Below, one piece after another: positions 9,466 through 55,681 of a DNA stretch of 64,000 nucleotides. Origin of the DNA: Candidatus Bathyarchaeia archaeon (GTDB lineage Archaea > Thermoproteota > Bathyarchaeia > 40CM-2-53-6). The notes beneath the pieces are model-generated. The model worked only from the letters and a program-made list of their open reading frames with translations. It was not told the origin of the DNA and did not search any database. Every line of letters begins with the position of its first letter. Position 1 is the first letter of the stretch. The stretch spans positions 320,001-384,000 of the forward strand of contig JBEKVV010000002.1 in the NCBI GenBank assembly GCA_049513715.1, read 5' to 3'. The position numbers and the translations under genes are program-made.

Positions 9466-9568
9466 TGGTGGGCCGGGAGAGATTTGAACTCTCGACCACC
9501 TGCTTCGGCCGCGCGTTTGATTTCGCGTGTGTCAGGCAGGTATCCTAACCAGTCTAGACTACCGGCCC
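9466..9568 (-). tRNA. tRNA-Val(GAC) with a 25-nt intron (about 9504-9528), CCA encoded
   Basis: Reverse complement reads GGGCCGG TA GTCT AGACTGGTT AGGAT A CCTGC CTGACAC [intron] GCAGG TGGTC GAGAG TTCAAAT CTCTC CCGGCCC ACCA. Confidence 0.93.
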
Positions 9569-51116: not shown

Positions 51117-52544
51117 TTGGACAAAGCCACACAAGTCTGCAACCAAGTCAAGAGAAAAATAGCTCCATCTCGCGACCTGAAGCGCCGCGTGGAGACCAAA
51201 GCCGAAGAGATCAGGCGCGCTGTAGAACGTGAATGTGTGAAAGCCGGTCTGCAAGCAGAAGTTCGACTAGACGGGTCAGTTGCGAAGGGCACGTGGATTA
51301 GCGATTACCGTGATGTGGATATCTTCATGCGAGTTTCGCCGGAACTGACAAAGAAGCAGCTTAGAGATGTCTGCTTACCGATCGCCAAGAGGGCCCTTAA
51401 ACCGAATGTTGTAGTTGAGAGGTTCGCAGAGCATCCTTACGTAGAATCAGTGGTTCCACTGGAAAGAGGCATTCTTCGCGTTAATGTCGTCCCATGCTAC
51501 GACGTCGTTCCTGGCAACTGGCTGAGTGCAACCGACAGAAGCCCCTTCCACACGCAATACGTCCGCGCACACCTAACCGAACAACAACGAGACGAAGTGC
51601 GGCTGCTCAAAGCCTTCATGAGAGGTATCGGCAGCTACGGGGCGGACATTAAGACCGGCGGCTTCAGCGGCATGCTCTGCGAAACGCTAGTGATTGCCAG
51701 AAAAGAATTCCTGAATGTTCTGGCAGATTTCACAGAATGGCGTGTTGACCGATACAGCGATGTCGAGAATTATTACCAAGATAGAAGCCGCGAGATTCGG
51801 AAGATCTTCAGAGAGCCCTTGGTAGTAATCGACCCTGTTGACAAAGGCCGCAATTTAGGTGCAGCTGTGCGACAGGAGCAGCTTTGGAATTTCGTTGCCG
51901 CTGCACGACATTTCATGTCGAAGCCCTCCACATCTTTCTTCAAAGAGCGGCGTGCTCGGGAGTTGAATGGCCCAGAATTCTTGCGGCTGTTGAAAATGAG
52001 GGGTTCCAGCATAATCTGCGTAGCAACTGGAGAGATCGACACGGTAGTGGACATTCTGTGGAGTCAGCTGTACAGAACCCAACGAGCGCTCACCAATCTT
52101 CTCCTGAATTACGACTTTGAAGTCATAAGGTCGGCTGCTTGGAGCGACGAAAGAAACCTGAATGTCCTGCTGTTTGAACTTGAAACCAACCAACTACCTG
52201 TCTCGAAGAAGCGTAAAGGGCCACCAGTAACTCGGCCAGCCGAAAGCTCATCATTCATCGCAAAACATCGCAGGAATGAGAGCACTGTGGCGGGGCCTTG
52301 GATTGAAGGTGAACGGTGGGCCGTACAAAAGAAGAGAGCTGCAATCTCCGCGAACACGCTACTGGTCTCGGCTGTGAGTGGGGGTGGAAGGCGGGTGGGC
52401 GTAGCCTCCCGCGTGTCACGAGCGTTCAAGAAGAAGGCGAATGTGGTCGAAGGGCCGGCCATTGGACGGCTCCTTTCGGGTAATCCAGAATTCGGAAGAT
52501 TCATGAGAACATACCTTTCAGGACGGCCCACTTGGCTTGACTAA
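51117..52544 (+). CDS. cca: CCA-adding enzyme (archaeal class I)
   Basis: GSVAKGTW...DVDIF, AEHPY, SATDRSPFH, GFSG.LCE, DPVD..RN. Confidence 0.95.
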   Translation: MDKATQVCNQVKRKIAPSRDLKRRVETKAEEIRRAVERECVKAGLQAEVRLDGSVAKGTWISDYRDVDIFMRVSPELTKKQLRDVCLPIAKRALKPNVVVERFAEHPYVESVVPLERGILRVNVVPCYDVVPGNWLSATDRSPFHTQYVRAHLTEQQRDEVRLLKAFMRGIGSYGADIKTGGFSGMLCETLVIARKEFLNVLADFTEWRVDRYSDVENYYQDRSREIRKIFREPLVVIDPVDKGRNLGAAVRQEQLWNFVAAARHFMSKPSTSFFKERRARELNGPEFLRLLKMRGSSIICVATGEIDTVVDILWSQLYRTQRALTNLLLNYDFEVIRSAAWSDERNLNVLLFELETNQLPVSKKRKGPPVTRPAESSSFIAKHRRNESTVAGPWIEGERWAVQKKRAAISANTLLVSAVSGGGRRVGVASRVSRAFKKKANVVEGPAIGRLLSGNPEFGRFMRTYLSGRPTWLD

Positions 52545-53310
52545 GGTTAAGGAAATTCCGTTGGGGCAGCTTCTCGGGACCGATTACTCTAGGTTTCTGA
52601 CGTACCCTTCACATGACGAGAGAGAAGCAAAGGCGAGAGTTCGGGAACTTGCTGCAATGGGTGTCACCAGCGTCAGCTTCGGAGGGCCCACCCTTATCGG
52701 TGGTGTTCCGATTCTAGGGAAAGGATGCGTTGGAATAGTGACCGGAGCTTCCATTGGTGAGGTTCCAATCGCCTTGAAGATTCGGCGGTTAGATGCGGAC
52801 CGGATAACGATGGTTGGTGAAAGTAGGCTGTTGCGCATCGCCAACAGTGTTGGAGTTGGACCCCGATTAATCACGGCAACAAGAAATTTCCTCGCCATGG
52901 AACTGTTCGATGGCCTTCCGCTGTTCAAGTGGTGCGAGGGGCAAGGCGGGAAGAGCAGCAAGATGGTGAAGAGAGCTTTAGCGTCTCTTCTTCTGGACTG
53001 TTTCAAATTGGACACGGTTGGTTTGGATCATGGAGAGTTGAGCCATGCACCGAAGAACGTGCTTGTTAGTGGACGGGGGGTGCCTTGCATTATTGACTTT
53101 GAAAGTGCAAGCACCGCTAGGCGAGTGGCAAACGTCACCGCAATAATCCAATATTTCCTGTTCGGACGAATATCCCAAGCCATTAGCGCGACCAAACTCT
53201 TTCCCAAGAGAAGAGCCGTTCTGAAAGTCTTGGGTGAGTATAAGCGTGAGGGCTCTGTTGAGAGGTTTGAAAGGATATTCAGCGCTCTTAACCTGCAATG
53301 GCCTCGATGA
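52537..53310 (+). CDS. Archaeal Ser/Thr protein kinase (RIO-like)
   Basis: LGKG..G.V, ALKIRR, DHGELS, KNV, IIDFESAS. Confidence 0.85.
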   Translation: MTKVKEIPLGQLLGTDYSRFLTYPSHDEREAKARVRELAAMGVTSVSFGGPTLIGGVPILGKGCVGIVTGASIGEVPIALKIRRLDADRITMVGESRLLRIANSVGVGPRLITATRNFLAMELFDGLPLFKWCEGQGGKSSKMVKRALASLLLDCFKLDTVGLDHGELSHAPKNVLVSGRGVPCIIDFESASTARRVANVTAIIQYFLFGRISQAISATKLFPKRRAVLKVLGEYKREGSVERFERIFSALNLQWPR

Positions 53311-53321
53311 AAAGTTATTAT
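53309..53321 (+). promoter_or_regulatory. BRE/TATA-like promoter of tRNA-Pro
   Basis: GAAAAG-TTATTAT about 30 nt upstream of the tRNA 5' end. Confidence 0.55.
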
Positions 53322-53348
53322 GAGCGCGTAATTCTCATTGCGGCTTGC

Positions 53349-53529
53349 GGGGCCGTCGTCTAGAAGAGATTCTCAAGAACTCTCTGGGCAACTTGGTCTG
53401 GGAACACGATTTCCGCCAACAGGATACCAGAGCGCAAAGTGCGCGCGGTCAACCTGGGGCGCTGGCGTCCCTGAGAAATCAAGGTCTTGGGGCCAGAGGT
53501 CGTGGGTTCAAATCCCACCGGCCCCACCA
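53349..53529 (+). tRNA. tRNA-Pro(GGG) with four introns: 53364-53391, 53400-53420, 53431-53452, 53468-53498
   Basis: Joined exons give 79 nt: GGGGCCG TC GTCT AGCTTGGTCTA GGAT A CCAGC CTGGGGC GCTGG CGGTC GTGGG TTCAAAT CCCAC CGGCCCC ACCA. Each junction pair forms a BHB-like motif. Confidence 0.9.
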
Positions 53530-53670
53530 ACCGTGACTTCTCTTCGCTCCACGGGCATGTGCCATCGAGGTCTTTCTCACACAAATCTTCCCTTCACAGG
53601 TGTCAGTTCAGACAAAAGACAGGATTTGATAGTCGGCGAAAGAAAAAACTGCTAGTGAAGGAATCAGTGA
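53504..53670 (+). repeat. Direct repeat copy 1 (tRNA-Pro 3' end plus flank)
   Basis: Matches 55277-55443 at a constant offset of 1773; the core 53536-53664 is identical. Confidence 0.95.
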
Positions 53671-53756
53671 AGACGGTGTGATCACATCAAAGTTAAGTCT
53701 TCCTAGGGTAAGTTTGACATGCATATGAGCCCTCCAACGGCGATGTACCAGCACCG

Positions 53757-54699: not shown

Positions 54700-55113
54700 A
54701 TGCCGATCTCGCTCTTTAAGGGTCATTCTAAAACTAACGGGTTTGGAGCATTCACTCCGCAACCAATCAAGAAAGGCGAAGTAATTTCAGTTTGGGACGG
54801 GCCTTATGCGGAGAAACTACCCGAGAGCGACCTTGCCAAATACTACCTTTACGTTAGACCTAACAAATGGCTCATAGGATTCGGCGGCGAATATCCGGAA
54901 AGTTTCATTAATCATTCGTGCGACCCAAACACGAAAGTTACTTGGGACGGTGACATAGCAACACTCTCCGCAGTTCGGAGTATCGAGCCGAATGAGGAAA
55001 TAACTTTTGATTATGAAACAGTAATCCCGTCGGACGACAGTTTCACTTTCATTTGCGGCTGCGGAGCTGGTAATTGCAGAAAAGTGATTCGTATTCCCAC
55101 TTGTAGTCTATGA
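54700..55113 (+). CDS. SET-domain lysine methyltransferase with post-SET cysteines
   Basis: GFGAF...I.KGE.I, FINHSCDPN, EEITFDY, CGCGAGNCR. Confidence 0.92.
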   Translation: MPISLFKGHSKTNGFGAFTPQPIKKGEVISVWDGPYAEKLPESDLAKYYLYVRPNKWLIGFGGEYPESFINHSCDPNTKVTWDGDIATLSAVRSIEPNEEITFDYETVIPSDDSFTFICGCGAGNCRKVIRIPTCSL

Positions 55114-55236: not shown

Positions 55237-55276
55237 AAATATCTCTGGGCAAGGGACCAATAGTTCCACAAGTTGA

Positions 55277-55443
55277 GGGTTCAAATCCCACCTGCCCAAC
55301 CAATCGTCACTTCTCTTCGCTCCACGGGCATGTGCCATCGAGGTCTTTCTCACACAAATCTTCCCTTCACAGGTGTCAGTTCAGACAAAAGACAGGATTT
55401 GATAGTCGGCGAAAGAAAAAACTGCTAGTGAAGGAATGAGTGA
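55277..55443 (+). repeat. Direct repeat copy 2 (degenerate tRNA 3' fragment, att-like)
   Basis: GGGTTCAAATCCCACCtGCCCaACCA followed by an identical flank. Confidence 0.95.
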
Positions 55444-55681
55444 CGATCAACGGTCTGAATGAGCATAGAAGTCGAAGAGCTCTTTCAATGTGAATCGTCT
55501 CCTCCGCTTAGGCACAGCCCCAGGTATTGGGTCACCTTTTATAGTAGTCTTACCTGATACGCGGCCAGTATATTGGAGATCTTACCTGCGTGGATGATGG
55601 GAGAGCCGTCAAGCTCGTACCGATTATCGCGGCGAGTATTATCTTTCGTATAACTAGAAAATTGGGACGGTGGAAAACGAA

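Follow-up and report, generated by a model that had tools for sequence, protein, structure and literature searches.

Whether a 181-nt locus that standard gene finders pass over can encode a functional tRNA-Pro(GGG) is the question raised by the stretch of DNA analyzed here (64,000 nucleotides, hereafter the window). An earlier note on this DNA had proposed that five exons in the locus join into a tRNA-Pro and that the four inserts between them are BHB-type introns at non-canonical positions. The exon and intron coordinates and lengths given there proved exact (Table 1); the five exons are colinear, and the 79-mer obtained by joining them is identified by ARAGORN as tRNA-Pro(ggg) with an encoded CCA. 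On the evidence presented below, the locus is very likely a single-copy functional tRNA-Pro(GGG) gene of an uncultured, soil-type archaeon of the Bathyarchaeia, with four short introns that would be removed by enzymes.

Table 1. Features of the tRNA-Pro(GGG) locus and its upstream flank, in window coordinates
Feature	Coordinates	Strand	Length (nt)	Position or content	Splice motif or conservation
Upstream ORF	52537..53310				stop codon overlapped by the BRE/TATA-like motif
BRE/TATA-like motif ATGAAAGnTTaTTATGAG (ATGAAAAGTTATTATGAG)	53307..53324	+			kept in 18/18 genus loci, flanks diverge
TATA-like TTATTAT	53315..53321			28-34 nt upstream of tRNA position 1	
tRNA-Pro(GGG) locus	53349..53529	+	181	contig 2, 373349-373529	
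Exon 1	53349..53363	+	15	acceptor 5' strand, U8, C9, D-stem 5' strand, A14, G15	no variation in 18/18 aligned genus sequences
Intron 1	53364..53391	+	28	15/16	H G10-U13 = GTCT/GGGC; 5-bp h' AGAGA/TCTCT; 0 H mismatches
Exon 2	53392..53399	+	8	D loop 16-20b including G18 G19	7/8 alignment columns invariant (18 genus sequences)
Intron 2	53400..53420	+	21	20b/21	H TGGT/GCCA; 4-bp h' GGAA/TTCC; 0 H mismatches
Exon 3	53421..53430	+	10	A21, D-stem 3' strand, A26, anticodon-stem 27-30	invariant in alignment
Intron 3	53431..53452	+	22	30/31	H TACC/GGTC; 4-bp h' GCGC/GCGC; 1 H mismatch
Exon 4	53453..53467	+	15	C31, loop C-U-GGG-G-C, anticodon-stem 3' strand, 44-45	few substitutions among relatives, pairing kept (C40 -> U = G:U pair)
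Intron 4	53468..53498	+	31	45/46	H CTGG/CCAG; 8-bp h'; 0 H mismatches
Exon 5	53499..53529	+	31	positions 46-48, T arm, acceptor 3' strand, A73, encoded CCA	

As assigned by ARAGORN, the joined 79-mer forms a cloverleaf with stems of 7/4/5/5 bp, an 11-nt D loop containing GG and a 5-nt variable region. Its anticodon loop reads C-U-GGG-G-C, and both G37 and A73 are present. The identity elements of ProRS are G35, G36, A73 and G1:C72, plus G37, and the joined sequence carries all of them. When compared with three uninterrupted archaeal tRNA-Pro(GGG) genes (L042, L066 and L124, of which the first two score 61.5 and 59.7 bits, respectively, with the Rfam tRNA model RF00005), the joined product was identical to each at 74/76 nt. 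Because these three genes are uninterrupted, all four junctions have natural counterparts in which the flanking exons are contiguous.

The unspliced locus gave no ARAGORN call and stayed below the gathering threshold of the Rfam tRNA model, which bears out the expectation that standard finders miss such a gene. At a permissive threshold, the tmRNA model gave a 30.9-bit match, by way of the acceptor stem and T arm, that runs from exactly 53349 to 53529 and so fixes the gene ends independently. No Rfam intron family matched the locus, even at E values up to 10. Group I and group II self-splicing introns were considered and rejected, inserts of 21-31 nt standing against a ribozyme core of hundreds of nucleotides. 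A split or permuted tRNA gene was likewise rejected, the five exons lying colinear within 181 nt on one strand.

The BRE/TATA-like box that had been noticed upstream of the locus is real and is conserved in all 18 aligned loci of the genus. Its position and conservation suggest an archaeal BRE/TATA promoter that would give the transcript a leader of a few nucleotides. A scan for sigma-70 promoters and intrinsic terminators found none, as expected for an archaeon. A direct repeat of 181 nt lies just downstream of the locus.

To search for splice motifs, we used an enumerator that requires a 4-bp central helix (H) between four exon bases, the last of which lies 2 nt short of the 5' cut, and four intron bases that stop 2 nt short of the 3' cut, with an intron helix h' stacked directly on H. 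All insert combinations up to six were tried, and the score of a product took account only of its cloverleaf pairing and universal bases. Run blind, the enumerator returned exactly the four introns with a score of 53, which equals the score of the only intronless tRNA identified in this genome. In 200 dinucleotide shuffles confined to the interior, with the acceptor 5' strand and exon 5 held fixed, the score never reached 50 (maximum 47, mean 35.2). A relaxed-BHB solver solved more loci, but it gave 72 near-equal solutions for the Pro locus, with a slipped variant at the top; because of this ambiguity, we relied on the strict solver and on comparative data. The intron option of ARAGORN, applied to the whole genome, returned mostly wrong isotypes with introns of up to 2698 nt and was useless here.

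As shown in Table 1, the central helices are those originally described, including the one mismatch in the third, and each is flanked by a 3-nt bulge cut after the second nucleotide. All four introns follow a common plan, in which h' is stacked directly on H beyond the bulge and the return strand runs through h', H and two intron bases to the 3' cut. Each motif is made up of the intron, the 6 nt of exon sequence before it and 1 nt of exon sequence after it. The position numbers follow from an 11-nt D loop, and the boundary of intron 4, which by sequence alone could be 44/45 or 45/46 (a one-base ambiguity), is set at 45/46 by the motif geometry. None of the four introns occupies the canonical site 37/38, and their reading as non-canonical BHB-type introns is supported by the motif geometry and by the relatives described below.

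Under the strict definition, an hBHBh' motif has the opposite 3-nt bulge closed by an outer helix h with at least 2 Watson-Crick pairs, as given in the available text of PMC7714728. In the canonical register, the outer exon-exon helix has 0-1 bp in all four introns, short of the strict hBHBh' form, and the 3' splice sites lie 2 nt 3' of H in short single-stranded linkers to the next hairpin. The four motifs are of the relaxed HBh' or bulge-helix-loop (BHL) type, not strict hBHBh'. Since the outer helix is absent or irregular, cleavage would depend on an enzyme that tolerates relaxed motifs; such motifs are substrates of some archaeal endonucleases, according to the portion of PMC12397907 at hand.

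The 181-nt locus was compared by BLAST with 41 related genomes. Surveying relatives, as the earlier note had suggested, recovered a full-length homolog with four introns (84-92% identity) in 17 of the 22 other genomes of the genus. The five genus genomes lacking a full-length match are 67-93% complete, and the places inspected in three of them are tRNA-Pro tail copies or other tRNAs. These data bear directly on the suspicion that the locus is a chimeric join of tRNA fragments produced during assembly or binning. The assembly is in multiple contigs with an estimated contamination of 8.8%, and the direct repeat just downstream adds to that suspicion; however, the same architecture, with the exons retained base for base, is found in 17 other assemblies of the genus, where its genomic surroundings are comparable and the upstream promoter motif is the same. 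We consider the probability of such an artefact negligible.

Outside the genus, both genomes representing the two sister genera of the family carry a three-intron form with introns 2-4, in which exons 1 and 2 are contiguous. Intron 1 is likewise missing, with exon 1 joined directly to exon 2, in many other archaea. In G026 (locus L026), a genome from a different family within the order, the gene has only the introns at 20b/21 and 30/31, and its exons 4 and 5 are contiguous; the intron at 20b/21 is thus found in the two-intron as well as the three-intron relatives. In the other families of the order, a Pro(GGG) ortholog was found only in G026, the remaining places inspected being Pro(CGG), Pro(UGG) or other tRNAs.

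These relatives decide how the 5' half of the locus should be parsed. It could be read as a three-intron gene in which locus positions 19-69 form one long intron, with the 8-nt exon 2 inside it, and ARAGORN does accept the 77-nt product of that parse as tRNA-Pro(ggg). The D loop of that product, however, lacks G18 G19; the segment that distinguishes the two parses is CUUGGUCU. The longer intron would also have a poorer BHB, with one H mismatch and a 4-bp h'. Moreover, the 8-nt piece is conserved while its flanks vary, and it is contiguous with exon 1 in the sister genera and with both neighboring exons in the intronless homologs L042, L066 and L124. Because exons 1 and 2 are contiguous in the sister genera, the junction at 15/16 is proven and the three-intron parse excluded; we give it next to no credence and retain the four-intron structure.

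In an alignment of 18 genus sequences, invariant columns made up 75/79 of the exons, 49/70 of the splice-motif intron positions and 8/39 of the hairpin loops, and the loop columns were rich in insertions and deletions. Selection thus appears, from this alignment, to act on the exons and splice motifs and not on the hairpin loops. Within the motifs, standard pairs make up 95.8-100% of the H cells in the 18 sequences. All 8 motif pairs of intron 2 are invariant and paired in 18/18, and the H mismatch of intron 3, which is T:C in this genome, is T:G in 15/18. Overall, the proposed structure has standard pairs in 97.7% of 882 cells, as against 32-47% when the partners are slid by 1-3 columns. Compensatory changes were seen at three pairs (13 cells), all in h' of intron 4. 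Most other motif pairs are invariant and hence neutral on pairing; the 18 aligned sequences are close kin.

We also considered whether the locus might be a decaying pseudogene riddled with insertions, its decoding having been taken over by another tRNA. Debris derived from tRNAs does exist in this genome, which holds abundant degenerate copies of tRNA-Pro 3' tails. Decay is nevertheless hard to reconcile with exons that, in 18 species-level genomes, stay nearly unchanged beside drifting intron loops, with conserved splice motifs and promoter, and with one uniform excision rule that gives a product 74/76 identical to intact genes elsewhere. Interrupted tRNA genes, among them a four-intron tRNA-Lys(UUU), are furthermore the normal state of this genome, and another Pro(GGG) gene that could have taken over was not found in it. 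The exon-1 15-mer has no second copy there, a BLAST search of the genome with the locus gave only 3'-tail matches of 23-50 nt elsewhere, and there is no other GGG anticodon arm in a tRNA context, in line with the expectation that this is its sole tRNA-Pro(GGG) gene. A pseudogene is very improbable on these grounds, and the assertion that the locus encodes a functional tRNA appears very probable from the conservation of exons, splice motifs and promoter.

In archaeal decoding, a tRNA with G34 reads CCU and CCC, and as the gene is present in a single copy, it should therefore be essential. The genome also contains a tRNA-Pro(UGG) gene with one insert (C1:308778-308876); a tRNA-Pro(CGG) gene was not located in it.

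The remaining tRNA genes of the genome are fragmented as well. A search for T arm, acceptor and CCA gave 33 candidates of 75-202 nt, a number that includes alternative starts of the same locus, and only one of them is of intronless length. The tRNA-Lys(UUU) gene (C4:148380-148571) has four introns and exons of 17, 14, 7, 6 and 33 nt, the last including CCA. Among the genus loci, 12 carry intron 1 of this gene and 9 lack it; as the intron is polymorphic within the genus, the junction is confirmed and the gain or loss is recent. Putative four-intron genes, given that intron counts for the other tRNAs of the genome are approximate, are Leu(CAG) (C5:220120-220321) and the candidates at C4:128273-128445 and C1:746945-747099. 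The description of the tRNA-Pro gene as exceptionally fragmented was therefore overstated, since tRNA-Lys(UUU) of the same genome has as many introns and exons of 6 and 7 nt. Rather, the four-intron tRNA-Pro is typical of a genus with unusually fragmented tRNA genes; the tRNA set of the genus appears to hold at least two four-intron genes with exons down to 6-8 nt, and its introns appear to accumulate stepwise. A gene for a CCA-adding enzyme lies just upstream of the tRNA-Pro locus, yet all tRNA candidates of the genome encode CCA.

A wider scan with the exon-1 15-mer, using one genome per species, gave at least 120 loci. Among the loci listed, at least 80 have a plausible acceptor 3' strand and at least 45 are identical to the joined product at no fewer than 63/76 positions. 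Inserts of 9 nt or more, counted by motif-free alignment in the 45 tRNA-Pro-like loci listed, number zero in 25 loci, one in 10, two in 4, three in 2 and four in 4. The four-intron loci L073, L100 and L139 are from Bathyarchaeia and duplicate sequences of the genus set. Locus L092 (Thaumarchaeota archaeon) has its four inserts at 15/16, 20b/21, 30/31 and 37/38 and represents a second four-intron form; together with L030 and L075, it was unsolved by the strict solver and was analyzed by motif-free alignment and reading by eye.

From these distributions, by unrooted parsimony over kinship classes, we infer a stepwise gain of introns, in which those at 20b/21 and 30/31 would have come first, followed by 45/46 and then by 15/16 in the ancestor of the genus. 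A blastn-short search of the four introns against the genome returned only chance-level matches of 11-16 nt, and nothing in the sequences points to other tRNA genes as the source of these introns.

The genome encodes two EndA paralogs of 186 and 192 aa, both with the N- and C-terminal tRNA_int_endo domains (Pfam PF01974 and PF02778). The 186-aa EndA matches the catalytic subunits of A. pernix, S. tokodaii and P. aerophilum with E values of 2.5e-41 to 8.8e-28. Tyr/His/Lys contexts are kept in the 186-aa protein (...AIYEHGPGIDHAPF... and ...VRKQF), and the 192-aa paralog has no His at the catalytic position. The 186-aa EndA aligns without a large gap to the A. pernix catalytic subunit (PDB chain 3p1z_B) over residues 7-109, the region of the extra loop included, and its match to M. 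jannaschii EndA begins only at residue 50. The text of PMC2724299 available to us confirms the P. aerophilum (PAE) and S. tokodaii (STO) assignments and places the Crenarchaea-specific extra loop of the catalytic subunit at about residues 34-46. Judging from the sequences, the two proteins probably form a crenarchaeal-type (alpha-beta)2 enzyme with catalytic and non-catalytic subunits, an architecture linked to a broad substrate range in the accessible parts of PMC4033280 and PMC2724299. The relaxed-specificity endonuclease postulated for this gene thus has a plausible candidate in the genome, which also encodes an RtcB ligase (578 bits).

We propose that the conserved BRE/TATA box would direct transcription from a start ∼4-5 nt ahead of the tRNA, and that the 181-nt precursor would fold into an acceptor stem, a T arm and four independent intron hairpins. 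EndA would then cut all eight sites in no obligatory order, RtcB would join the exons and RNase P would trim the leader. This scheme departs from the earlier note, which had held that ordered splicing would be needed. RNAfold gave the precursor a predicted energy of -79.1 kcal/mol with the acceptor stem, the T arm and four separate hairpins, and RNAalifold, applied to the alignment, independently gave the same stem and arm and four hairpins holding the H helices. In the predicted fold, all four H helices coexist in the unspliced precursor with pair probabilities of 0.7-1.0; for h' of introns 1 and 3, slipped registers without the bulge are preferred by the energy model. Because each motif uses only 6 upstream nt, the intron and one following base, no splicing order is forced by structure, and a need for ordered splicing is not supported for motifs that are self-contained and whose central helices are predicted together.

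A gene that is real and spliced could still have an obligatory order, with some motifs cleavable only after a neighboring intron has been removed; a neighboring hairpin, or a re-formed D or anticodon stem, may for example supply the missing outer helix. The outer helices are indeed missing in the precursor, and with exons as short as 8-10 nt, neighboring hairpins are only 4-8 nt apart. Precedents are found in the available sections of the tRNAscan-SE 2.0 paper (PMC8450103), with close-set introns of which one must go first, and of PMC3728597, where ordered removal was shown in a red alga. Against this stand the simultaneous prediction of the four H helices, with h' or close variants, in the unspliced RNA, and the fact that no motif draws on sequence beyond its own upstream exon. 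We therefore regard an obligatory order as unlikely, though with a chance well worth keeping in mind, and favor cleavage of the eight sites in any order.

Several known systems resemble the tRNA-Pro gene. Multiple-intron tRNA genes of the Thermoproteales were reportedly described by Sugahara et al. in 2007/2008. Those of Pyrobaculum, Thermofilum and Caldivirga have three introns at most according to the text seen of PMC4033280 and PMC8450103, which agrees with the earlier figure of up to three. The Thermoproteales genes and the present gene share short non-canonical BHB-type introns, several per gene, with relaxed motifs, and are missed by finders; the EndA of the Thermoproteales is, as predicted for the one encoded here, an (alpha-beta)2 heterotetramer that has the crenarchaeal extra loop. 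Unlike them, the present gene has four introns rather than a stated maximum of three and belongs to the Bathyarchaeia, and intron transposition between tRNA genes, which has been described in the Thermoproteales, left no sign here.

Among Asgard archaea, 92-95% of tRNA genes in three genomes (Atabeyarchaeia/Freyarchaeia) have introns, over half of them several, as stated in the part of PMC11291895 available. A preprint of October 2026 reports, in its accessible text, up to five intervening sequences per Asgard tRNA gene and repeated gains (bioRxiv 10.64898/2026.10.13.758758), which further weakens the description of the tRNA-Pro gene as exceptionally fragmented. As far as those texts go, the Asgard and Bathyarchaeia genomes are alike in that most tRNA genes are interrupted, at BHB-compatible sites, with many D-arm inserts missed by annotators. 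The two differ in phylum-level lineage, and the junctions here, unlike those in Asgard, are confirmed by natural intronless and intron-poorer orthologs, the series of 2, 3 and 4 introns tracking order, family and genus.

In the red alga Cyanidioschyzon merolae, nuclear tRNA genes likewise contain ectopic and multiple BHB introns, as many as three per gene and placed in the D arm, the anticodon loop and the T arm, and splicing intermediates were demonstrated by RT-PCR (PMC3728597, in the portion available). Unlike the tRNA-Pro locus, these genes, as described there, are eukaryotic, hold three introns at most and in some cases are also permuted. Split, tri-split and permuted tRNA genes are known from Nanoarchaeum, Caldivirga and Thermofilum (PMC4033280, available text). 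The same chemistry of EndA and ligase at BHB motifs joins their pieces; here, in contrast, the five pieces lie in cis, colinear on one strand within 181 nt and behind one promoter.

A literature search found no report of tRNA introns in Bathyarchaeota or Bathyarchaeia, and none of the papers listed for 'four introns', tRNA and archaea reported a four-intron archaeal tRNA in its title or the start of its abstract. The known class of multi-intron BHB tRNA genes gains a member in a new lineage, one intron past the peer-reviewed maximum. Given the Asgard preprint, the tRNA-Pro locus is not the record, nor is it unique in its own genome. The number of introns in an archaeal tRNA nonetheless exceeds the peer-reviewed maximum of three in Bathyarchaeia, a widespread soil and sediment lineage. 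The tRNA inventories of such MAGs are incomplete, as ARAGORN and Rfam miss the only gene for the tRNA reading CCU and CCC.

The tandem intron hairpins may, by stacking, substitute for each other's missing outer helix; if true, this would be a new way to present relaxed BHB motifs to EndA. The same genomes hold many gene cassettes whose attachment sites are tRNA 3' tails. A cassette that replaces part of a tRNA gene could bring an intron with it; alternatively, introns could be retained because they break up integration targets. A joint reading, in which few cis-encoded tRNA gene sets outside Asgard archaea are as fragmented as that of this genus, its introns are causally linked to the cassettes and its hairpins stack, is in our estimate improbable as a whole. 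The orthologs with 0, 2, 3 and 4 introns, together with the polymorphic intron of tRNA-Lys, make a clean natural system in which to date intron gains and to ask how an (alpha-beta)2 endonuclease recognizes motifs that lack an outer helix and are spaced by 8-nt exons.

The four introns of the tRNA-Pro(GGG) gene (window 53349-53529) share a feature: in the exon-intron central helix of each bulge-helix-bulge motif, the 3' intron strand imitates the strand with which the covered exon bases pair in the mature tRNA. In intron 4, CCAG is identical to C27-G30, and in intron 1, GGAC/GGGC is similar to G22-U25. Splicing therefore exchanges the intron strand for the real strand of the stem.

A 178-nt ortholog of this gene is present at locus L092 (record title Thaumarchaeota archaeon) and carries four inserts: one of 49 nt at 15/16, two at 20b/21 and 30/31, and one at the canonical 37/38 site. 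Position 45/46 has no insert. Despite the four inserts, it still scores 30.3 bits with the Rfam tRNA model. This tRNA-Pro(GGG) is a second four-intron form, distinct from that of the source genome (G000).

The 3' end of the tRNA-Pro(GGG) gene is part of a 181-nt direct repeat with 94% identity between its two copies, which are spaced 1773 nt apart. The tRNA tail is degenerate in copy 2, where it has 5 changes in about 30 nt and a broken acceptor strand. The 1.77-kb segment between the copies contains three small ORFs and looks like either a cassette inserted at the tRNA 3' end or a replacement of that end. Furthermore, the last 25-30 nt of tRNA-Pro, from the T loop to CCA, occur without the 5' half in at least eight free-standing copies in the source genome. 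The sequence 3' of the intact tRNA-Pro gene in a relative (L009) matches the flank after the C3:181346 tail copy, and this match suggests that insertions displaced the original flank.

Coordinates of repeats, tail copies, genes and tRNA candidates (window positions, or contig positions in G000)
Feature	Position	Strand	Remark
Repeat copy 1	window 53493-53673		runs from the end of intron 4 through exon 5 to 144 nt beyond it
Repeat copy 2	window 55266-55446		degenerate tRNA-tail part, near-identical downstream 140 nt
SET-domain protein ORF	window 54700-55113		one of the three ORFs between the repeats
tRNA-Pro tail copies	C3:166057, C3:181346, C3:427309		
tRNA-Pro tail copies	C4:149706, C4:150379		
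tRNA-Pro tail copy	C5:206517	-	
tRNA-Pro tail copy	C1:892316		
tRNA-Pro tail copy	window 55277		
CCA-adding enzyme gene	window 51117-52544	+	Pfam tRNA_NucTransf2, CAA_C
Candidate tRNA Leu CAG	C5:220120-220321	-	four introns, solver
Candidate tRNA, Arg-like UCG	C4:128273-128445	-	four introns, solver
Candidate tRNA Cys GCA	C1:746945-747099	-	four introns, solver

Four introns are also found in tRNA-Lys(UUU) of the same genome (L143, C4:148380-148571), whose exons measure 17, 14, 7, 6 and 33 nt, with CCA counted in the 33-nt exon. Within the genus, intron 1 of this tRNA is present in 12 loci and missing from 9. The 3' part of the gene recurs as a second, partial copy at C4:150473-150589. Three more four-intron genes are candidates predicted by our solver, a BHB-intron enumerator with cloverleaf scoring (scores 49-52).

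A CCA-adding enzyme gene lies two genes upstream of tRNA-Pro(GGG), whose CCA is genomically encoded. CCA is likewise encoded in every one of the genome's 33 tRNA candidates, which were themselves sought as T-arm, acceptor and CCA matches. The sole tRNA detected by Rfam within the window (9469-9568, minus strand, 100 nt, 56.1 bits) is, according to the solver, a tRNA-Val(GAC) with one 25-nt intron.
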